Origin: a virus
Taxonomy: Duplodnaviria; Heunggongvirae; Uroviricota; Caudoviricetes
IMG/VR virus record: IMGVR_UViG_2718218131_000002
Direction: 5' to 3' (one strand)
Length of the DNA: 64,000 nt
Each line of letters opens with the position of its first letter. Position 1 is the stretch's first letter. The notes under the pieces are model-generated. The model was not told the DNA's origin, searched no databases, and worked only from the letters and a program-made list of their open reading frames with translations. Shown piece by piece: positions 817-63,980 of the stretch. A program made the translations under genes and the position numbers.

Positions 817-945
817 TCAGCCGTTAGATTTTGCCGAACTGGAAAGCGCCTGTTTAAATTCGTTGAAGCTGAGAGCTTCTTCGCCTTCGGCAAGACCTTC
901 GAAGTATTCTTCGTAAGCCTTTTCCATGATTGTGTCGAAATCCAT
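817..945 (-). CDS. ydfB: YdfB-like small acidic protein (42 aa)
   Basis: Unlisted minus-strand ORF MDFDTIMEKAYEEYFEGLAEG...; its length and position match ydfB in Qin. Confidence 0.4.
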   Translation of the reverse strand: MDFDTIMEKAYEEYFEGLAEGEEALSFNEFKQALSSSAKSNG

Positions 946-21686: not shown

Positions 21687-21698
21687 GGGCGGCGACCT
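21687..21698. other. cosN cohesive-end site of the prophage (lambda-type)
   Basis: GGGCGGCGACCT followed by CGCGGGTTTTCGCTATTTATGAAAATTTTCCGG, matching the lambda left end, about 180 bp upstream of Nu1. Confidence 0.75.

Positions 21699-22395: not shown

Positions 22396-22421
<26 letters not shown>
21876..22421 (+). CDS. nu1: Terminase small subunit Nu1
   Basis: MEVNKKQLADIFGASIRTIQNWQEQGMPVLRGGGKGNEVLYD..., 181 aa, lambda Nu1. Confidence 0.9.
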
Positions 22422-26102
<3,681 letters not shown>

Positions 26103-55053: not shown

Positions 55054-55427
55054 TTTTTTTCGTGTTTTTTCAGTATGCGCATACTGGATAAGTGCACAGA
55101 TACAACGTGAAACAATACGCAACAACGTGAAACAACCACGAACAAGAGGCCAAAAAGTATACAGATTTATAAGTTGCTGATTTTTAATGATCAACTGGTT
55201 TTTTATACATTAGCGAATAACGCTTTAAATAGTGAGAAAAAAGGCATAAAACGAGATTTTATGCCTTTGCATAACACTGAATTAAAATATATTTTATTAA
55301 AATAACCCCGTTTCTGTAAAATACCCGCCACCAACATTTGCCAACTCTGAATCACCCTGACACAATCAGACACATCCCAACGCAATAGAACACGAAATAA
55401 CTCTTTAAGAAACGAAAGGGGGCAATA

Positions 55428-55616
55428 GTGTTAAGCACTGATCGGTTTATACGTGAAAAAGAATGCGAAAAGCTAACAGGCCTTAGCCGCTCATGCCGCT
55501 ACCGCCTGGAAAAGGCCGGACAATTCCCATCACGGCGTAAGCTGGGCGGTCGTTCCGTTGGCTGGTCTTTATCCGAAGTTCTGGCATGGAAGGACAGCTG
55601 CGAGGCAGTTCACTAA
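55428..55616 (+). CDS. alpA: AlpA-family phage regulatory protein (excisionase-like HTH)
   Basis: 62 aa LTGLSRSCRYRLEKAGQFPSRRKLGGRSVGWSLSEVLAW. Confidence 0.55.
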   Translation: MLSTDRFIREKECEKLTGLSRSCRYRLEKAGQFPSRRKLGGRSVGWSLSEVLAWKDSCEAVH

Positions 55617-55943
55617 TCAGGCTGGCGGCACACAGCCGCCACGCATCCACTAATACAGAGATCTAACCATGAATACTGGATATACGCCCGAACAGGGGCG
55701 GGGCTTCGTTCGGCCTGGTGAAACTGAAAAACAACAAAATCGCGGTTTTTCAGACATAAAAAAAGCGGCCCCGATAAGGAGCCGCCTTTCTGAACAATTA
55801 ACCTACTGCGCAAAAAATGAATCTGAGCAGGGGAATTATATCAGCCAGGTGACGAAGCGCCACAATTGCCGGATAACGGGCAAAGAAAAGGCCACCTGTC
55901 ACGGTGGCCAATGTGATCAGTGTGGTGGTTTGCTGGTGGATTG

Positions 55944-56123
55944 TCAGCCTTTTGGCACAATACCGCGCTGTTGTAATTCTTTACGGATTATTCGCTTTAT
56001 CCAGGCAGCAAGAGAATCATCGCCGTCCTGTTGTTGTGCTTTTTCCATCTTTTCCCGTAAGTCAGGATCTAAACGAAACTGGAACGGAGGATTACCACGC
56101 CTTTCGTTTTTGTGTGTTGACAC
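55944..56123 (-). CDS. Ribbon-helix-helix small DNA-binding protein (unlisted 59-aa ORF, GTG start)
   Basis: NPPFQFRLDPDLREKMEKAQQQDGDDSLAAWIKRIIRKEL; GAGGTG ribosome-binding site upstream. Confidence 0.4.
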   Translation of the reverse strand: MSTHKNERRGNPPFQFRLDPDLREKMEKAQQQDGDDSLAAWIKRIIRKELQQRGIVPKG

Positions 56124-56630
56124 GTTAATTACACCTCATGTAATGTATTTATGTGTAGTGACACATTACACACAATCAGCACAAAAAGCAAAGCCCCGCA
56201 AGTGTCGTTACCACTGGCAGGGCTTATAACCACAAACCGTTATGAGAGGTAGTTTTATGGCTGTAAGACAGCATACCCCACGCCTAGCGCACACACAAAC
56301 GGCCTTTGTGTGGCGTAATCGATTTCATGATTTCACTTTTCACAATCAGCCAGGCGGTCGGTTTTTGCCGGATTTAAGCCGCCGTGGGTATTTATCGACA
56401 AAATCTTCAAGGGCAAATTTTTCTGGTGGCACTAAGCGCGGCGCTGGTGGTGGTATTTTTGTTCTGGTTAGTTCTTCCTCAAGTCTGGCGCAGGCTTCTG
56501 ACTGCCTTTGCCGGATGATTTCATCATCTTGCGTTTGCGTGTCTTGTATTGGTGATAGTGTGTTGTTGGTCATGATACTGCCCTGTAAAGCAATGCGCCG
56601 TAGTACCTCACACCACGGCGCTAGTGATGG

Positions 56631-56810
56631 TTACTCCTGCTCTTTGGCCTTCCTGCGCTGGCGGCGTTTGATCTCGCCTTGCATTGACGCAATGATGAAT
56701 TGTGATGTGCTTTCGCCTGATTCTTTCACTAATTCCATGGCGTTTACTATTTCGTGTGGTACACGAGCCTTTAGAGCTTGTGATTTTGCGTTTGTTGTAC
56801 CCGTTGCCAT
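56631..56810 (-). CDS. Ribbon-helix-helix-like small protein (59 aa)
   Basis: MATGTTNAKSQALKARVPHEIVNAMELVKESGESTSQFIIASMQGEIKRRQRRK; AGAGGA ribosome-binding site. Confidence 0.4.
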   Translation of the reverse strand: MATGTTNAKSQALKARVPHEIVNAMELVKESGESTSQFIIASMQGEIKRRQRRKAKEQE

Positions 56811-57005
56811 TTCTATTCCTCTGTTGGATTGGTGGGGGACAGTATACACAGAAAAAGCACAAATAAAACCCTTGACGTGGACCACACCTAAAGAATATAG
56901 TGGGCCACACCTTAAGGTTGTCAAGGTGCATAAATGCAAAGCCCCGCAAGTGTCGTTACCACTCGCAGGGCTTATAACCACAAACCGTTAACAGGAGTAA
57001 CGATT

Positions 57006-57203
57006 ATGGCTGGAACACAGCATACCCCACGCCTTGCGCACACACAAACCGCCTTTGTGTGGCGTTTTCTGGCACTGAGTGCCGGAGAATCTCAAATTAT
57101 CCACGTGACCGCCTGGACGGAACGCGAAGCGCGTAACCGTTGCCCGTCCGGTTGTGTCGCTGTATTCGCCGCCCGTATTCGTCAGGAGGTGTGCCATGCC
57201 TGA
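57006..57203 (+). CDS. Hypothetical small protein (65 aa) downstream of the second copy of a duplicated leader
   Basis: AGGAG ribosome-binding site; N-terminus MAGTQHTPRLAHTQTAFVWR is shared with a paralogous start at 56257. Confidence 0.3.
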   Translation: MAGTQHTPRLAHTQTAFVWRFLALSAGESQIIHVTAWTEREARNRCPSGCVAVFAARIRQEVCHA

Positions 57204-57516
57204 TATGTCAAATTACCAGTACCTGATTAATCCGCATTTTAACTGTGAGCATGATATTGCTAAAAAGGTTTATTCTGCTGCGGATGAGGCTACTGACAAT
57301 ATATCAATGGCTGTTGCGTCAATTGGTAGCCTGATGTGGTATGCGTCAGAAAATGAGGAATATGACGAAAAGGCTATGCGCATTGACATGGGGAATATTG
57401 GCTTGTTACTGGCAATGCTTGGGCAGTTTGATATTTCGTTACGGTGCACCATTGAAAATGCCACAGATGCATTAAATGCCATAAAGAAAGCGAATACTGA
57501 TTCAAATCGGGGATAA
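57196..57516 (+). CDS. Hypothetical protein (106 aa)
   Basis: Strong AGGAGG ribosome-binding site before ATG (MPDMSNYQYLINPHF...). Confidence 0.4.
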   Translation: MPDMSNYQYLINPHFNCEHDIAKKVYSAADEATDNISMAVASIGSLMWYASENEEYDEKAMRIDMGNIGLLLAMLGQFDISLRCTIENATDALNAIKKANTDSNRG

Positions 57517-57522
57517 ATAATC

Positions 57523-57822
57523 ATGAGAACATATTTATCTGGCTTGACTGCCAGCGGTTATGCACACCCAAAAATTATCCCCGGCGCTATTTATCTGGAT
57601 AAGAACGGTAACAGAGTAACGGTAAAAGAACTGATGTTTGACCGTGTTTATTTTATTCGTGATGGATATTCATTTCTTAGTTCGCTGAACGTGGAGATCT
57701 TTATTTGCAGATTCCGGCGGGAAATCCCGACTTCCAGAAATAACCATGTGTCACGTGTGGATGTGGATAAAAAACTACAGGAACTGAAAAACATGATTGC
57801 CGCGTGGAGAGAGCAGAAATGA
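57523..57822 (+). CDS. Hypothetical protein (99 aa)
   Basis: ORF tightly packed between the neighbouring genes; overlaps the primase start. Confidence 0.35.
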   Translation: MRTYLSGLTASGYAHPKIIPGAIYLDKNGNRVTVKELMFDRVYFIRDGYSFLSSLNVEIFICRFRREIPTSRNNHVSRVDVDKKLQELKNMIAAWREQK

Positions 57823-59636
57823 AAAAAGCGCCAAATTTAAAACACCAGCCGCGTGACAAAATGACGGAAGTCATCATTTTTGCGGGTAGTGATGCGTGGG
57901 CACATGCGAAGCAGTGGCAGGAACAGGACGGGCGACTGGCTGGCGATAACGTGCCACCTGTCTGTCTTGGAGAGCAACAACTTGCCGAACTGGACAACCT
58001 GCAAATCGTACCGGACGGACGCTATCGCGTGCGTCTCTACCAGGCGGGGTTATTGCGTCCGGGGCTTGTTAATACCATCGGGCAGAAACTGGCAGCGGCA
58101 GGTGTCAGGGATGCTGATTATTACCCTGAAGGAATGCACAGCCAGAAACGGGAGAACTGGCGCGAATATCTGGAACGTGAACGGGCAGAGCAGGCGGAAA
58201 AGAAAAAGGTAGTTGAACTGCCTGTAAAGAAAAAAGAGCGGGTAAAAGACGATAACGCTTCATCACTGGCGCTTAACCAGATGGGAGCAAGTCAACGCGG
58301 CGAAGTTCTCCTGGCACATTATGGCGGTGAACTGGCGATTCATGCTGACTCTGACACTGTTCACCATTACAACGGCGTTGTATGGGAGCCAGTACAGGAT
58401 AAAGAATTACAGCGAGCTATGGCACAGATTTTCATTGATGCGGAGATCAGCTATTCGCAGAACGCCATTAAATCGGCGGTCGATACCATGAAGTTAAGTT
58501 TGCCTGTAATGGGGAATACAGCCCGTAACCTGATTGGATTCAGTAACGGGGTATTTGATACCAGAACAGGTAATTTTCGGGAGCATAACAAAAACGACTG
58601 GTTGTTAATTGCCAGTGAATTACCTTTCAGCCCACCAGCAGAGGGGGAAACGCTGGCAACACATGCGCCGAATTTCTGGAAGTGGTTACGCCGTTCGGTG
58701 GCTGAGAATGACCGCAAGGCGGATCGCGTACTGGCTGCATTATTCATGGTGCTGGCGAACCGGTACGACTGGCAGTTATTCATTGAGGTAACAGGTCCAG
58801 GGGGAAGTGGTAAAAGCGTGATGGCGGAGATTTGCACCATGCTGGCGGGTAAGGCTAATACAGTATCAGCGAGCATGAAGGCGCTGGAAGATGCAAGGGA
58901 ACGCGCGTTAGTGGTTGGCTTTTCGCTGATTATCATGCCGGATATGACCCGCTACGCTGGTGATGGGGCGGGAATTAAGGCTATTACAGGCGGTGACAAG
59001 GTGGCAATCGACCCAAAACATAAAGCCCCATATTCAACTCGTATCCCGGCAGTAGTGCTGGCGGTTAACAATAACGCTATGTCATTCAGTGACCGCAGTG
59101 GGGGGATCTCACGTCGTCGGGTGATATTCAATTTTTCGGAAGTTGTACCGGAGAACGAACGTGATCCAATGCTGGCGGAAAAAATAGAAGGTGAGCTGGC
59201 GGTAGTGATTCGCCATCTGCTTACACGGTTTGCTGACCAGGACGAAGCCAGACGCCTGTTATATGAGCAGCAGAAATCTGAAGAAGCACTGGCGATAAAG
59301 CGAGAGGGGGATTCGCTGGTGGACTTCTGCGGCTATCTCATGGCGTCGGTAATGTGTGATGGCCTGTTAGTGGGTAATGCTGAAATTGTGCCATTCAGCC
59401 CACGCAGGTATCTCTATCATGCCTATCTGGCTTATATGAGGGCACATGGGTTTGGTAAACCTGTAACACTGACGCGCTTCGGTAAAGATATGCCGGGGGC
59501 AATGGCGGAATATGGCAGGGAGTATATGAAACGGAAAACGAAGCACGGTTTGCGTTCAAACGTGACACTGACGGAGGAATCAGAAGACTGGATGCCATCA
59601 TGTGTATCGGTCACTAATGACGATAGCAAAAATTAA
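57819..59636 (+). CDS. P4-alpha-type primase/helicase (satellite replication protein)
   Basis: Walker A GPGGSGKS in the C-terminal half; primase-like N-terminal region; followed by TGTTCACC iterons. Confidence 0.8.
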   Translation: MKKAPNLKHQPRDKMTEVIIFAGSDAWAHAKQWQEQDGRLAGDNVPPVCLGEQQLAELDNLQIVPDGRYRVRLYQAGLLRPGLVNTIGQKLAAAGVRDADYYPEGMHSQKRENWREYLERERAEQAEKKKVVELPVKKKERVKDDNASSLALNQMGASQRGEVLLAHYGGELAIHADSDTVHHYNGVVWEPVQDKELQRAMAQIFIDAEISYSQNAIKSAVDTMKLSLPVMGNTARNLIGFSNGVFDTRTGNFREHNKNDWLLIASELPFSPPAEGETLATHAPNFWKWLRRSVAENDRKADRVLAALFMVLANRYDWQLFIEVTGPGGSGKSVMAEICTMLAGKANTVSASMKALEDARERALVVGFSLIIMPDMTRYAGDGAGIKAITGGDKVAIDPKHKAPYSTRIPAVVLAVNNNAMSFSDRSGGISRRRVIFNFSEVVPENERDPMLAEKIEGELAVVIRHLLTRFADQDEARRLLYEQQKSEEALAIKREGDSLVDFCGYLMASVMCDGLLVGNAEIVPFSPRRYLYHAYLAYMRAHGFGKPVTLTRFGKDMPGAMAEYGREYMKRKTKHGLRSNVTLTEESEDWMPSCVSVTNDDSKN

Positions 59637-59647
59637 ACTTATGGAAT

Positions 59648-59880
59648 AACTGTTCACCACTGTTCACCCTGTCATAAATATCTTTTGTATCAGTATGTTA
59701 TAGGGTGAACAGTTATTTATGAACTGTTCACCAAACTATTCACTGTTCACCTTTTTGATTGTTTATTGAGCTTCAAGGGTGAACAGTGGTGAACAGTTGG
59801 TGAATAGTTTTTGTGAAACTGTTCACCCCTTAACATTATGAATTAAAAGATAAAATATCAAAAGGTGAACAGGTGAAGGG
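59648..59880. repeat. Iteron array (replication origin) with at least 8 copies of TGTTCACC / GGTGAACA
   Basis: ACTGTTCACC at 59650 and 59660, inverted copies at 59704 and 59778-59809, further copies to 59879; immediately after the primase gene. Confidence 0.75.
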
Positions 59881-59923
59881 TTAAAACGCAAAAATTTTAA
59901 TTTACTGCTGTGAGATAAAGCCT

Positions 59924-60169
59924 ATGACAGCGAAGCACATAAAAAAATCACAATCGCACGCCCTTGATTTGACGGAACACTGGTTAAGGGTGTCGATAAA
60001 AATCATCGACCGCAACGCCGGGGAAGGATATGCGAAAGCACATCCCGAACTGATTAGCGCATTCATGACAACGGCAGCTGCAAACTTTGCCACGCTGACA
60101 GAACGGGAGATTGCCGAAGCGGAACAGGTGACAACCATCAATGTTAAAACCGGAGAGCAGACAGCATGA
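59924..60169 (+). CDS. Hypothetical protein (81 aa)
   Basis: ORF overlapping the next gene start by 4 nt. Confidence 0.35.
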   Translation: MTAKHIKKSQSHALDLTEHWLRVSIKIIDRNAGEGYAKAHPELISAFMTTAAANFATLTEREIAEAEQVTTINVKTGEQTA

Positions 60170-60588
60170 CAGCACAGATAGCGGCTTACGGGCGGCTGGT
60201 GGCTGACCCGCAGTTAAAGACCACCAGCAAAGGGACACAAATGGCGATGGCGAGTATGGCGGTTCCCCTGCCGTGCAGCCAGGCAGATGACGGAACGGCG
60301 ACGATGTGGTTATCCGTCCTGGCGTTTGGCAGACAGGCCGACGCACTGGCAAAACACCACAAAGGCGAATTGGTGAGCGTGGCGGGTAACATGCAGGTAA
60401 GCCAGTGGACAGGCCAGAACGGCGAAACGCGGCAGGGCTGGCAGGTTATCGCAGACAGTGTAATCAGTGCGCGAACGGCGCGACCGGGCGGCAAAAAAGG
60501 CCAGCAGGGGCAGGCCACTGACGCACTGAACAGGGCAAAACAACAGTCGGGGAATGATGATCCGTACGGCGATAATATACCGTTTTAA
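60166..60588 (+). CDS. Single-stranded-DNA-binding (OB-fold, SSB-like) protein
   Basis: MTAQIAAYGRLVADPQLKTTSKGTQMA...WLSVLAFGRQADALAKHHKGELVSVAGNMQVSQW has an SSB-like pattern; Gly/Gln-rich acidic tail ending DDPYGDNIPF. Confidence 0.5.
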   Translation: MTAQIAAYGRLVADPQLKTTSKGTQMAMASMAVPLPCSQADDGTATMWLSVLAFGRQADALAKHHKGELVSVAGNMQVSQWTGQNGETRQGWQVIADSVISARTARPGGKKGQQGQATDALNRAKQQSGNDDPYGDNIPF

Positions 60589-60800
60589 ATTCTGCAAACA
60601 AAAAGATGCCGGAAAAAAAATAGATTTTCCGGCATGCTACATAAATCCCGACCAAAGGAAGTAAATACATTAACACGAATTATCAGCACTGAAGTTGTCA
60701 CGGCATATTTTATACAACATTGCACTTGGTTGCATGTATTCGCATAGCAGACATCGGTAATAGAATATATTCACAATTATTTGTAATGAATGTAAAGAGG

Positions 60801-61847
60801 ATGAGTATGGTTGACTTATATTCGCCTACACAGCTTGTGCAGGTGGCTAATGCTGAAGATGTGCAAAAAAAATTAAATGCGTTGTTTACCAGTTTGTTTT
60901 TCACTCGCTCGGTAATGTTTGAATCGAGAGACATTATTCTTGATACGATCGACGATCCAAATATCCCGATCGCGGCGTTTTGCTCTCCTATGGTGGGCAG
61001 TAAAGTTTCACGAGATGAGGGATACGAATCAAAAACAATTCGCCCTGGCTATATGAAACCGAAAAGCAGCATTGATCCAAATAAGTTAGCTGTGCGCCCT
61101 GCTGGTGTATCACCTGAGCAATACAATGCTTTTGGAGCGCGTAATATTAAAGTTAAACAGGCGATTGTAAATCAGGCTAAAGCTATTCGTGCACGTATTG
61201 AATGGCTTGCCGTTCAGGCAATCACAACGGGGAAAAATATCATTGAGGGCGATGGCATTGAACGTTATGAACTGGACTGGAATATAAAACCACAAAATAT
61301 TATCACGCAGTCCGGCGGTGCTGAGTGGTCAGGTAAGGATAAAGAAACTTTTGATCCAAATGATGATATTGAGAGCTACGCAGAATTTAGTGAGGGCGTC
61401 ACTAATATCATCATTATGGGCGGTAATGTATGGAAGAAATACCGTTCATTCAGAGCGATAAAAGAGGCTCTGGATACCCGTCGTGGTTCTAATTCCGAAC
61501 TGGAAACGGCCCTTAAAGACCTTGGTGATTCGGTGAGTTTTAAAGGGTATATGGGCGATGTTGCGATTGTTGTATACAGCGGGCGTTATACCGACGAGGA
61601 CGGAACTGAAAAACATTTCCTTGATCCTGATTTGATGGTGCTTGGCAATACGGCTCTTCAGGGGATTGTCGCCTATGGCGGTATTCAGGATCCGGAGCTA
61701 ATCCGAATGGGGCTGACTAAAGCCGAACTTGCACCGAAAAACTATATTGTGCCTGGTGATCCGGCTATTGAATATGTGCAGACACATTCAGCACCACAGC
61801 CAATACCGGCCCGCATCAATCGTTTTGTTACCGTTCGCATTGGCTAA
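60801..61847 (+). CDS. Major capsid protein homologous to lambda E, carried by the satellite
   Basis: 348 aa starting MSMVDLYSP; conserved blocks TQSGGAEWSGKDKETFDPNDDIESYA and TRRGSNSELETALKDLGDSVSFKGYMGDVAIVVYSGRY parallel lambda E. Confidence 0.8.
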   Translation: MSMVDLYSPTQLVQVANAEDVQKKLNALFTSLFFTRSVMFESRDIILDTIDDPNIPIAAFCSPMVGSKVSRDEGYESKTIRPGYMKPKSSIDPNKLAVRPAGVSPEQYNAFGARNIKVKQAIVNQAKAIRARIEWLAVQAITTGKNIIEGDGIERYELDWNIKPQNIITQSGGAEWSGKDKETFDPNDDIESYAEFSEGVTNIIIMGGNVWKKYRSFRAIKEALDTRRGSNSELETALKDLGDSVSFKGYMGDVAIVVYSGRYTDEDGTEKHFLDPDLMVLGNTALQGIVAYGGIQDPELIRMGLTKAELAPKNYIVPGDPAIEYVQTHSAPQPIPARINRFVTVRIG

Positions 61848-61856
61848 GGGGGAGCA

Positions 61857-62198
61857 ATGGCTACTCATTACACTGAACTCATGGCTGGCACTGAAGCACT
61901 GGTGACTACGCTGGGGATATTTTCAGCTAATAAAGGGGTAATTCCTGCATTTACGCCACTGATGCAGGAAGATGCAACAGGTGCACTGGTGGTATGGGAT
62001 GGTTCGAGCGTAGGTAAAGCGGTTTATGTTTCCGCTGTACAAATCGACACCGCGAAAAAAACACAGGCTCAGGTCTATAAGACAGGTGTCTTAAATGTTG
62101 ATGCTCTGAACTGGCCTGAGTCTGTAAAAGAACTGTCAGTAAAGATTGCAGCGTTTGTTGGCTCAGGTATTTCTGTTCAGCCGCTGGCTCGTGTGTAA
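61857..62198 (+). CDS. Head decoration protein homologous to lambda D
   Basis: 113 aa; FTPLMQEDATGALVVWDGSSVGKAVYVSAVQ...AAFVGSGISV parallels lambda D (TPLMLDT...[17 protein letters not shown]...[10 protein letters not shown]). Confidence 0.7.
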   Translation: MATHYTELMAGTEALVTTLGIFSANKGVIPAFTPLMQEDATGALVVWDGSSVGKAVYVSAVQIDTAKKTQAQVYKTGVLNVDALNWPESVKELSVKIAAFVGSGISVQPLARV

Positions 62199-62209
62199 AG
62201 GGGGATACA

Positions 62210-62593
62210 ATGCAGAATCATTACAATGACCTTAAGCCAATTGCCGAAATGATGTATCCGGATCCAGCAGTAGAGGAATTAAAGGCTATTGCTGACAAAA
62301 TGCGTTTAAGTGAACGCCTTGTTGATATGAATCAGGTGATGGAACTTACTACCCTTAGCCGTCGCACATTGCTAAACCTTGAGGCTCGCGGAGAGTTCCC
62401 CGAACGCGTACAGGTTACGGAAGGGCGTAAGGCCTGGTATTTAAGTGAAGTGATCGACTGGATAAACAATATTCCTCGATCTTCTGAATATTGCCGCGTA
62501 CCTGTCCCAAAAAAGCCAGATGCGGCGCTATGCCTCAAGATTGAGCGTGTACGTCGCAATGCACGGGATGGTCGCTATAAGTTGATTGGTTGA
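62210..62593 (+). CDS. Hypothetical protein with AlpA/MerR-like HTH in its C-terminal half
   Basis: LTTLSRRTLLNLEARGEFPERVQVTEGRKAWYLSEVIDWI. Confidence 0.4.
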   Translation: MQNHYNDLKPIAEMMYPDPAVEELKAIADKMRLSERLVDMNQVMELTTLSRRTLLNLEARGEFPERVQVTEGRKAWYLSEVIDWINNIPRSSEYCRVPVPKKPDAALCLKIERVRRNARDGRYKLIG

Positions 62594-62649
62594 TGAAATT
62601 AGGGCCCGTTCTGGCTGGCGGGTCCTTTCCGGCGATCCGGTAGGCTACG

Positions 62650-62661
62650 GGGCGGCGACCT
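62650..62661. other. cosN-like site of the satellite
   Basis: GCGGGTCCTTTCCGGCGATCCGG...ACGGGGCGGCGACCT...GTTTTCGCTATTTATGA closely matches the prophage cos at 21650-21720, then diverges. Confidence 0.65.
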
Positions 62662-62794
62662 TGCGCGTTTTCGCTATTTATGAGCCTTTTTCGGGTGCTG
62701 GTGGTGGTTTTGTTGTTCGCTCTATCTCTATGAATAAAAAGGAAAAGATAAAACCAATACACCAACCTGAAACATTACTTAAGTGGGGATATTG

Positions 62795-63337
62795 ATGAAA
62801 TCGTACCTGATGAACAAAAAAAACATGGCGCAAAGCTGCCGTGTAAGTGCGACAGCGTTCGACAAGTGGGGAGTGACTCCCGTTGAACGTAAAGGCCGCG
62901 AGGCGTTTTATGATGTTGCCAGCGTAATAGACAATCGGGTTAGCAATGCAATTAACCAGATTACAGACGACAAAGGCGAGATTGATAATGATGAACTTTT
63001 ACGAGTCAGGATCAGATTACTGACAGCACAGGCGGAGGCGCAGGAACTTAAAAACGAGCGCGATCGCGGTGACGTGATTGATACAGAGTTTTGCATGTAC
63101 GCGCTTTCAAAACTGGCGAGTCAGATTTCATCAATCATGGACAGCCTCCCGCTTACTATGCAAAGGAGCTTCCCACAGATGGCCCCCGCCATGCTGGATG
63201 GCCTGAAAAAAGAAGTTGTCAGAGCCTGTAACGCATGCACAAAACTTGATGAAAACATCCCGCGAATACTGTCCGATTATCTGATGGAAACTACCGGAAA
63301 TGTGCCTGATAAGTTTCAGCCGGATAAAGACAAGTAA
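62795..63337 (+). CDS. Nu1-like terminase small subunit encoded by the satellite
   Basis: C-terminal two-thirds parallel lambda Nu1 (LTAQAEAQELKNERDRGDVIDTEFCMYALSKLASQISSIMDSLPLTMQRSFP); N-terminal DNA-binding part divergent. Confidence 0.7.
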   Translation: MKSYLMNKKNMAQSCRVSATAFDKWGVTPVERKGREAFYDVASVIDNRVSNAINQITDDKGEIDNDELLRVRIRLLTAQAEAQELKNERDRGDVIDTEFCMYALSKLASQISSIMDSLPLTMQRSFPQMAPAMLDGLKKEVVRACNACTKLDENIPRILSDYLMETTGNVPDKFQPDKDK

Positions 63338-63348
63338 CGTAGCGCACA

Positions 63349-63630
63349 ATGACAGAAGCCGAACTACTGGGATTAATCCGCCGTGTTACCGGAATCAGCC
63401 AGCAGCATGACGAACAGGCCACGCAGCCGGACAGCGTGATCGCCGAAAATTACGTGCGTGTTGTTGCTGATGTAATGCGCCGTGATGGTATTGAGTTTAA
63501 CGGCGTGGATATGCGCGACATACGAATCAGAGTACTAGAGTTGCTGGCATACCGTCGACGCGTGGCGATGTATCAGGAGAGCGCGAAAAACACTTATCAG
63601 TGGAAGAAGCCGGAACGGCTGCGGCGGTAA
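63349..63630 (+). CDS. Hypothetical protein (93 aa)
   Basis: ORF following the Nu1-like gene where lambda would have terminase A; far too short to be a large terminase. Confidence 0.35.
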   Translation: MTEAELLGLIRRVTGISQQHDEQATQPDSVIAENYVRVVADVMRRDGIEFNGVDMRDIRIRVLELLAYRRRVAMYQESAKNTYQWKKPERLRR

Positions 63631-63639
63631 CTTGCTGAT

Positions 63640-63980
63640 ATTCCCGATAACGCAAAATTGCGTTGGCTGGCAAAGTGCAAAATTGCACGATGGCCTAACC
63701 CATTGATTATTTCGAAAACCTGCAATGCAGGAAATCGGGGAAGTAAGCCTAAGCTATTGATTCTTTCGGAAACCTCAATTTGAGGAAGTCGGCGCGGTAA
63801 CTCGCTGAACTTAAAGCAAAGCTCAAAATTGAGCTGGCTGAATAATCATTATGATTACGCAGATGATTAAGGAATGACCGAAGGCGGAAATTCGCCTGTG
63901 GTTGATGGGGGAGTTGCAGATCTGCAACTCGACCATGAAACTACGGAAACTACCCGTAGTTTGGGTAGTAAGAGTAACAC
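63640..63980. repeat. Array of short hairpin-forming palindromes with an A/T core (N3-5 AAAATT N3-5 type) embedded in longer direct repeats
   Basis: CGCAAAATTGCG, GCAAAATTGC, GCTCAAAATTGAGC, CCTCAATTTGAGG, GGCGGAAATTCGCC, TTGCAGATCTGCAA, CTACGGAAACTACCCGTAG; units GCAAAG..CAAAATTG..CTGGC recur three times. Confidence 0.5.

Follow-up and report, generated by a model that had tools for sequence, protein, structure and literature searches.

The window analysed here, the 64,000-nucleotide stretch of the virus record IMGVR_UViG_2718218131_000002 (Caudoviricetes), ends in a phage satellite that occupies its last 10 kb, and we describe an array of short palindromes located at the distal end of this satellite. 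The satellite is 100% identical to a region of the genome of E. coli PK8241 (NZ_CP080139.1), in which we read the sequence past the window end (locus L001, whose positions equal the window position - 54299). From annotation and Pfam matches, it is a phage-inducible chromosomal island (PICI) of the EcCICFT073 type inserted between roxA and phoQ, with int, alpA, a primase gene, capsid genes of the E and D types, cos, a gene at the rpp position and an att site. The gene order is integrase, AlpA, Icd-like protein, DUF4222 protein, primase, single-stranded DNA-binding protein (SSB), E-like capsid protein, D-like decoration protein, a second AlpA-like helix-turn-helix protein, cosN, a Nu1-like small-terminase homolog and ORF93, an open reading frame (ORF) of 93 amino acids (aa). 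EcCICFT073, an island that has been described experimentally (PMC6092414), shares the insertion site, the gene order and the architecture. An earlier note, made from the letters of the window alone, had placed the palindromes after the Nu1-like operon, and this is correct: the Nu1-like gene stands at the rpp position of EcCICFT073-type islands, in the cos-then-rpp order known from PICIs (PMC9026076).

In NZ_CP080139.1, 743 bp separate the stop codon of ORF93 from the convergent stop codon of phoQ and contain no annotated gene. Comparison with the empty site carried by K-12 places the attB core and the crossover near GGACATA, and thus the whole 743 bp are part of the island. Within this tail, the palindromes that had been reported at 63640-63980 are real and far denser than expected by chance. 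At least ten dyads fall in this range, where six or more had been claimed; they combine an A/T centre with different stems, but the AAAATT centre proposed for them is found in three dyads, the others having AAT/ATT or something else, and the direct-repeat units measure 45-54 bp instead of 25-35 bp. As a single strand, 63640-63980 folds at -63.8 kcal/mol versus -37.3 +/- 3.8 for shuffled sequences (z = -6.9, DNA parameters), and RNA parameters yield, for the full array (63631-64099), z-scores of -10.85 (+ strand) and -8.48 (- strand). The coordinates given by the earlier note hold but its bounds were too narrow, as the stop codon of ORF93 (63628) marks the start of the array, which extends for about another 100 bp after the window end; beyond ~64100, it gives way to the att arm. 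The region is non-coding, as had been proposed, and does not lie inside a longer gene extending beyond position 64000: the 743 bp hold short, non-conserved ORFs alone. A coding explanation was rejected, the tail ORFs being at most 77 aa long and not maintained in relatives with exchanged modules, and no ORF running across units. The array is also present in related elements, namely EcCICFT073, a capsid-forming PICI (cf-PICI) and Shigella.

The proximal part of the array (63627-63840) consists of four tandem units of 45-54 bp, each made of a consensus site for the integration host factor (IHF), YAANNNNTTGATW, followed by a T-rich spacer of fixed length and a dyad of 13-16 bp (Table 1). A search of the 64-kb window with an nhmmer profile built from 12 hand-picked units returned these four units, all on the + strand, and none elsewhere. 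A1, B1 and B2 match the IHF consensus exactly on the - strand, and L001 contains 7 matches to this consensus versus 1.7 expected, 3 of them within the array and on one strand. The TAA stop of ORF93 (63628) doubles as the TAA of the first IHF-like site, the first unit always overlapping that stop, and A2 begins with a copy of the ORF93 3' end (GCGGTAACTCGCTGA).

At least 60 distinct units were collected from 80 related loci of IMG/VR and from E. coli records. The 60 distinct satellite units are all on the + strand relative to ORF93 and follow the pattern YTAAC-NNN-YTGATW-TTYCGRAAAC-dyad-GRRNYCGG, in which the dyad has arms of 5-6 bp and an A/T centre of 3-4 bp. TAA and TGA are invariant, the T completing TGAT is present in 52 of the 60 units, and the interval between TAA and TGAT is variable. 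The IHF core consensus WATCARNNNNTTR (YAANNNNYTGATW on the other strand) is matched on the - strand by 50 of the 60. At the sequence level, the units therefore carry IHF sites, to which IHF is predicted to bind.

Database comparison revealed a link to a helper-phage gene that is not visible from the window itself. In 44 phage records, the antisense strand of roi, a gene of lambdoid phages, is identical to B2 at 45 of 48 positions (E = 8e-11); the match always lies inside roi, which is annotated as DNA-binding protein Roi, anti-repressor Ant or KilAC. In HK620, it covers roi codons ~41-57, the satellite + strand corresponding to the roi antisense strand. The - strand of B2 translates to 16 Roi residues, and by tblastn Roi residues 42-57 are matched there with 87.5% identity. 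Roi is composed of a Phage_pRha domain (residues 11-98), inside which the B2 match falls, and a KilAC domain (residues 125-227). B1 is identical at 26 of 27 positions to the anti-repressor gene of WGPS6 and at 36 of 40 to that allele class. The + strands of B1 and B2 are thus both antisense to roi, with perfect stretches of 26-33 nt, and the window contains no roi gene.

The roi gene itself exists in allelic forms, of which four were read directly and 240 more loci were sampled. Each sampled allele has the IHF consensus at the same codons, followed by a different dyad of 5+3+5 bp (Table 1). This dyad is encoded by just those codons of the Rha DNA-binding domain (P-x-x-x after GVIR) at which the alleles vary; the presumed operator and the variable protein segment share nucleotides and would therefore always be inherited together. 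The better-matching B-type satellite units are 85-96% identical to roi alleles over 40-50 nt, identity ending at the unit edges, and satellites other than that of the window match five further roi alleles. The captured piece of roi is always the same 48 bp holding the IHF consensus and the dyad. Mismatches to the closest allele cluster at the unit edges, in the N4 spacer of the IHF site and at positions 17-18 and 42-45; they never affect TAA or TGAT and rarely the dyad. Moreover, satellite dyads are often more symmetric than the coding-constrained versions of roi, as in CCCCCATTGGGGG (versus CCACCATTGGGGG), TTCGCCAGCGGCGAA and CAGCCAACGGCTG. HK620 has exactly one unit, inside roi, whereas satellites have 1-5 units, all on the + strand; the array of EcCICFT073, at 1388655-1388860 of NC_004431.1, comprises three, with the dyads TTCGCCAGCGGCGAA, a degenerate CCTCAAATTGAAG and CCCCCATTGGGGG.

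The specificities within an array tend to differ. Among 19 distinct arrays (50 units), only 1 within-array duplicate of a dyad class was found versus 6.2 expected (P = 0.002), a statistic that is indicative only, since the arrays are related by descent and their independence is overstated. The rarity of duplicates fits selection for several specificities, and would also fit recombinational loss of identical direct repeats.

Table 1. Features of the array, of the satellite that carries it and of the related roi alleles. Positions are those of the window unless a locus is named.
Feature	Position	Strand	Sequence	Remarks
Unit A1	63627..63671	+		nhmmer E = 2.7e-8
A1 IHF-like site	63628-63640	-	TATCAGCAAGTTA	consensus match
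A1 dyad	63650-63663		ACGCAAAATTGCGT	no phage counterpart found
Solitary A-type dyad	63675..63688	+	GTGCAAAATTGCAC	repeat family D4; GCAAAG flank common to 63816-63831
Unit B1	63695..63739	+		nhmmer E = 5.3e-8; roi allele type LPALQV (Stx2a_WGPS6)
B1 IHF site	63696-63708	-	AATCAATGGGTTA	
B1 dyad	63719-63731		CCTGCAATGCAGG	
Unit B2	63749..63793	+		roi allele type LPQIEV (HK620, H-19B, Stx phages)
B2 IHF site	63750-63762	-	AATCAATAGCTTA	
B2 dyad	63773-63785		CCTCAATTTGAGG	
Unit A2	63797..63840	+		degenerate IHF-like site and dyad; nhmmer E = 5e-5; repeat families D3, D5
A2 dyad	63820-63835		AGCTCAAAATTGAGCT	
Module P	63840..63897	+		CTGAAT, first dyad, ACGCAG, third copy ATGATT, AAGG, then second dyad
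First dyad of P	63844-63856		AATCATTATGATT	
Second dyad of P	63882-63897		AGGCGGAAATTCGCCT	
Module Q (~130 bp)	63899..64000, on to ~64028	+		20-bp dyad with central GATC and two more dyads
20-bp dyad of Q	63911-63930		GAGTTGCAGATCTGCAACTC	
Dyad	63940-63960		ACTACGG..CCGTAGT	
Dyad	63979-63993		ACCCAGATTTTGGGG	
ORF93	63349..63630	+		93 aa, phrog_1561, function unknown; always directly upstream of array
EcCICFT073-type PICI between roxA and phoQ	53644..64000, on to ~64369 past window end	+		match to NZ_CP080139.1, K-12 empty site, gene order
Integrase	53824-55053			start of island gene order
Primase	57804-59636			followed by SSB
Lambda-type cosN of satellite	62650..62661	+	GGGCGGCGACCT	exact match
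Nu1-like small-terminase homolog	62783..63337	+		Pfam Phage_Nu1 7e-23, phrog_57; position of rpp in EcCICFT073-type islands
Doubled 12-bp motif	53777-53802 and L001 9969-9994 (window ~64268-64293)		GGTGTAGTTAAT x2 (CGGTGTAGTTAATGGTGTAGTTAATT)	near both island ends
Chi octamers	54708, 55932, 56443, 59315, 60195, 62697	+	GCTGGTGG	
Chi octamers	58632, 60221, ~64120 (past window)	-	GCTGGTGG	
Unit in roi, HK620	L004 1501-1548			
Unit in roi, VT2-Sakai	L086 901-948			
Unit in roi, Stx2_EH2201	L087 901-943			
Unit in roi, WGPS6	L088 ~885-935			
Dyad of roi peptide LPQIEV		roi antisense	CCTCAATTTGAGG	HK620
Dyad of roi peptide LPALQV		roi antisense	CCTGCAATGCAGG	Stx2a_WGPS6
Dyad of roi peptide NPPMVV		roi antisense	CCACCATTGGGGG	VT2-Sakai
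Dyad of roi peptide KPPMAV		roi antisense	CAGCCATTGGCGG	
Dyad of roi peptide SAPMAN		roi antisense	TTCGCCATTGGCGCA	Stx2_EH2201
Dyad of roi peptide LPPMEV		roi antisense	CCTCCATTGGAGG	
Dyad of roi peptide LPPMGI		roi antisense	TCCCCATTGGGGGA	

The remaining palindromes have no such counterpart. The A-type dyads (ACGCAAAATTGCGT, GTGCAAAATTGCAC and AGCTCAAAATTGAGCT, with CAAAATTG centres) are the source of the AAAATT centre mentioned above. The A-type units keep the IHF frame without complementarity to roi, and searches of 50,697 phage records and of the roi loci found no counterpart of them. Compensatory variants of A-type dyads occur in relatives (GCCCAAAAATGGGT, and AGCGCAAAATTGCGCT for A2 in the satellite L005). 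The solitary dyad GTGCAAAATTGCAC, apparently a truncated unit of the A2 type, occurs 17 times in satellite tails, always on the + strand. Distally, module P forms a conserved frame around a variable dyad, in which other satellites bear GGTCATAATGACC. Module Q has four AAACTAC/GTAGTTT half-sites at 9-bp spacing and is a block conserved at 91-95% in 10 satellite loci, precisely inserted or absent, with too little variation among its copies for a covariation analysis. Module R holds AACCATAACG..CGTTACGGTT and CCCCATTGGGGG, and its hairpin has an A.C on the + strand. No phage homolog of P, Q or R was found in the 50,697 phage records. Both the A-type dyads and the distal modules look like further operator-type sites.

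We propose, with a probability of about one half, that the proximal array is a set of DNA-level composite sites for binding by host IHF and helper Roi and serves as a decoy or sensor directed at several helpers. This proposal builds on observed homology to roi, allele matching, constraint on the IHF consensus, uniform orientation and diversity within arrays; the units would actually be bound by the two proteins, and the decoy or sensor purpose is the part of which we are less confident. According to what Clerget and Boccard reportedly found in 1996, HK022 Roi binds a site in its own gene beside an IHF site, and IHF stabilises the complex. The B-type units would have been copied, probably by short-patch gene conversion, from the sole place in roi that has the same IHF consensus and allele-specific dyad. 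When a phage carrying roi grows, its Roi, helped by IHF, could be captured on the satellite tail, different units capturing the Roi of different phages. After satellite replication, the array may work as a sponge or sensor with several specificities for helper Roi, and this capture would alter roi autoregulation, or the action of Roi on the phage, to the advantage of the satellite. The suggestion of the earlier note that the palindromes are RNA hairpins or binding sites thus gains support in its second half, for the proximal units, through the IHF consensus and the copies of the roi dyad, whereas no test came out in favour of RNA.

A rather unlikely alternative is that the tail is an antisense RNA array, transcribed by read-through from the rpp-ORF93 operon, whose B-type RNAs would silence Roi by base pairing to its mRNA in the 5' part; the units, either processed or within a longer RNA, would each be directed at the roi allele of a matching helper phage, with targets that differ from unit to unit. 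Small RNAs (sRNAs) of a satellite that regulate helper genes are known from the Vibrio phage-inducible chromosomal island-like element (PLE) and its phage ICP1, and extended complementarity to the target mRNA does exist for B1 and B2. Relative to the satellite operon, every significant unit runs antisense to roi, the uninterrupted identity of 26-33 nt is far above what an sRNA seed needs, no intrinsic terminator stands between ORF93 and the array, the + strand folds better than the - strand, and the CAAAATTG centre is in the + orientation in 42 of 45 A-type dyads. However, the tail lacks a promoter of its own and a defined 3' end: sigma-70-like promoters number 0 in 1.2 kb (2.2 expected), and terminator-like sites are at chance level (2 weak ones versus 1.4 expected), the dyads not being followed by T-runs, so that they form no cluster of intrinsic terminators. 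No Rfam family reached its gathering threshold in the window tail or in the extended locus, and nothing besides manA had E < 0.4. The weak cmscan match to manA RNA (RF01745) over 63820-63989, a stretch that includes module P, was rejected as chance, at 21.6 bits versus a gathering score of 55.2 and without the pseudoknot helix. Nor do the dyads of the 60 units show a G.U strand bias, with 8 GT/TG versus 6 AC/CA at non-Watson-Crick stem positions. Moreover, the captured piece of roi is always the same 48 bp with the IHF consensus; where satellite units have diverged from roi, they have done so mainly in the N4 spacer of the IHF site, TAA and TGAT being kept, a pattern for which IHF accounts and base pairing does not. 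Finally, the dyads of satellites depart from the roi sequence in the direction of perfect symmetry, and A-type units keep the IHF frame without complementarity to roi.

The array could also be recombination debris, phage and satellite fragments gathered at a Chi-rich hot spot, with palindromes that are inherited and functionless in the satellite. The tail is indeed highly mosaic, its modules being precisely present or absent between satellites, and one locus carries an insertion sequence (IS); Chi octamers are dense (67 in 31.7 kb of 37 distinct satellite tails, about one per 470 bp), and one of the EcCICFT073 dyads is degenerate. However, debris would not yield one and the same 48-bp window of roi every time, always in a single orientation, with copies in direct contact and no other roi sequence, nor would it hold TAA/TGAT (the final T in 52 of 60) and the distance between IHF site and dyad constant over 60 distinct units, improve dyad symmetry or avoid duplicate dyad classes within an array. 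We regard this explanation as doubtful.

It is improbable that the palindromes are generic hairpins of a 3' untranslated region (UTR), which would protect the mRNA of the late operon from 3' exonucleases or shield phoQ from read-through. The position of the array directly after the last gene of the operon and facing convergent phoQ, as well as its many stable stem-loops, would suit such a role. However, U-tracts are absent, with terminator-like sites close to the expected number as stated above, the same tail is found at other integration sites with different neighbours, and roi homology, IHF consensus and allele diversity are left unexplained. Very improbable is an attP apparatus in which integrase, AlpA and IHF would use the IHF sites and dyads as accessory sites for excision and integration: although the array lies in the attR-side arm, with an IHF consensus at 64334-64346 and GGTGTAGTTAAT x2 flanking the core at both ends, the units are 530-740 bp from the crossover core (versus ~240 bp for a lambda-type attP), distinct arm-type motifs lie nearer the core, and unit content varies freely among satellites with the same integrase and att site. 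The array was also considered as cosB and rejected, since cosN sits 1 kb upstream, before the Nu1-like gene.

Several points weigh against composite sites for IHF and Roi. Binding of both proteins to the units is predicted from sequence, and the segment of roi found here is presumed to be the Roi/IHF site reportedly mapped in HK022. The unit sample and the roi-allele sample come from scans giving at most 80 loci each. In CFT073, the nin region of the prophage at icd, which is the presumed natural helper of EcCICFT073, has no gene annotated roi or Rha, and lambda is not known to carry roi. Since the known EcCICFT073 helpers thus seem to lack roi, Roi is not required for the island life cycle and the benefit of its capture is speculative; a role in modulating phages that carry roi, or in defending against them, is more likely for the array. 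The orientation, always antisense to roi relative to the satellite operon, and the 26-33 nt of identity would equally suit antisense RNA. Finally, half of the hairpins listed by the earlier note are not explained by Roi, because the A-type units and the modules P and Q are without a phage counterpart.

A broader and quite tentative view is that satellites hold a heritable, updatable library of ~48-bp roi modules, a multi-helper recognition array akin to a memory of past helpers. Each module would recognise one Roi allele or, as RNA, silence it; the modules would be refreshed by gene conversion in the Chi-rich hot spot and might decide which phages are exploited or blocked.

One of the unit-bearing genes has a particular position. 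In the Eru-type phage Stx2_EH2201 (L087 358-1065), the Rha-domain gene carrying the unit stands directly after cro, which in lambdoid phages is the place of the replication genes O and P (PMC8951638). Its presumed binding site falls within the gene itself, as the lambda ori does within O, and one idea is that some Rha proteins may act at an origin.

In two satellite classes unrelated to each other, ORF93 and the array always occur together. The protein is conserved, with an invariant and basic C-terminus (WKKPERLRR), and its AlphaFold2 model is a three-helix protein (predicted local distance difference test, pLDDT, 74). No Pfam match was found for ORF93, nor any significant fold match of the model in PDB. 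It could be the partner of the A-type dyads. A first search of GTDB species representatives gave no match for ORF93 and a second gave Shigella flexneri alone (1 of 185,579), where the array is present too; from this result, the module looks restricted to Escherichia and Shigella. A 14-nt motif at the ORF93 start (AATGACAGAAGCCG, 63348-63361) recurs at 63599-63612 and 63873-63886 with 79-86% identity. The copy at 63873-63886 begins an ORF of 60 aa (63874 onward), which is not conserved in relatives and is therefore probably a duplication remnant, not a gene.

Matches to at least part of the 743-bp tail, which need not involve the array, occur in 1,581 of 5,426 complete E. coli genomes (~29%), at several chromosomal sites, with a median of 1 place per positive genome and a maximum of 6; the other 3,845 genomes have none. 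All the matches inspected sit in satellite tails or inside roi genes. The same tail ends a cf-PICI with an unrelated packaging module. In L009, an IMG/VR satellite, an IS transposase gene directly follows the first unit (from ~3330), which is consistent with a tail that is permissive for insertion and recombination. The satellite of the window is rich in Chi octamers (9 in ~10.7 kb), one of them 47 nt to the right of cosN. Chi octamers may protect a satellite without Gam from RecBCD, and they may drive the mosaic exchange of tail modules.

At both island ends, the doubled 12-bp motif (Table 1) is accompanied by TTGTTCCA/TTGTTTCA repeats, and together these are probably arm-type sites of the integrase. 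A doubled motif has been described in the attP arms of a related clade of PICI integrases, its sequence not being given in the passage concerned (PMC10111431). The separate IHF consensus at L001 10035-10047 (window 64334-64346) lies ~30 bp from the crossover. A tRNA/tmRNA scan found nothing. A lambdoid prophage adjoins the satellite (window ~1-47000), with an ORF of large-terminase size at 22396-24321 and a cosN at 21687-21698 that is identical to the satellite cosN, which makes it a candidate helper. Neither profile search nor tblastn found a roi-like gene in the part of this prophage that lies within the window.

The array is a cis element of a model island and ties satellites to a single helper gene family, Roi/Rha, including the roi of Shiga-toxin phages. 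In Gram-negative PICIs, AlpA is known to be activated by the helper, whereas neither the helper cues nor most mechanisms of interference are known (PMC6092414). The function of the Roi/Rha family is itself poorly understood, and if the units bind Roi, they would offer a handle on its role; they would also be the first example known to us of a satellite copying a helper operator as a multi-allelic decoy or sensor, and compatibility between satellite and phage might be predictable from array content. Should it instead act as RNA, the array would amount to a natural multiplex antisense array. IHF sites, operators and titration loci already count among the known kinds of elements; for a tail of tandem, multi-allelic copies of the internal operator region of a helper gene, we found no description in the literature searched (PICI with Roi, IHF, hairpins and non-coding arrays).

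Among known systems, the manA RNA motif shares with the array CUGAAUAA, UAAGG and several hairpins, and differs by its pseudoknot helix, which is absent in the array. With arrays of clustered regularly interspaced short palindromic repeats (CRISPR), the satellite tail has in common a tandem arrangement and variable elements that match invading phages. However, in agreement with the earlier note, it is not CRISPR-like: the variable 13-bp dyad lies inside the repeat, the units follow directly on one another with a spacing of 48-68 bp, the island annotation includes no cas gene and all 'targets' are one locus, roi. The RNAs sar of P22 and c4 of P1, directed against ant, and the PLE sRNA directed against ICP1 resemble the units in having a hairpin and in being complementary to a partner gene of the antirepressor family, within the 5' part of its coding sequence. 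Unlike them, the array has no promoter, terminator, processing signal or Rfam match of the c4 type, and its conservation follows the IHF consensus. Bacterial interspersed mosaic elements (BIMEs) of the RIB/RIP type are likewise short intergenic combinations of an IHF site and palindromes downstream of operons, but the array has no consensus of repetitive extragenic palindromes (REP) and is not dispersed: with a median of 1 place per positive genome, it is far from the hundreds of copies that characterise REP/BIME.

A further likeness is to datA, with its DnaA boxes and IHF site, and to the incA iterons of P1, which are also non-coding clusters of sites for one DNA-binding protein. Their effect is to sequester or handle that protein, with the assistance of IHF for datA, and not to regulate an adjacent promoter. 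Unlike datA and incA, the satellite sites would target the protein of another element and do so with several allelic specificities, a function that in the present case we infer. The array can also be compared with the Roi/IHF site reported within roi of HK022: the phage has one copy within coding sequence and the satellites have 1-5 tandem non-coding copies of different specificities and no roi gene, but the B-type units are homologs of the roi segment in which an IHF consensus stands beside a dyad, with the same spacing and the same allele-specific dyads.

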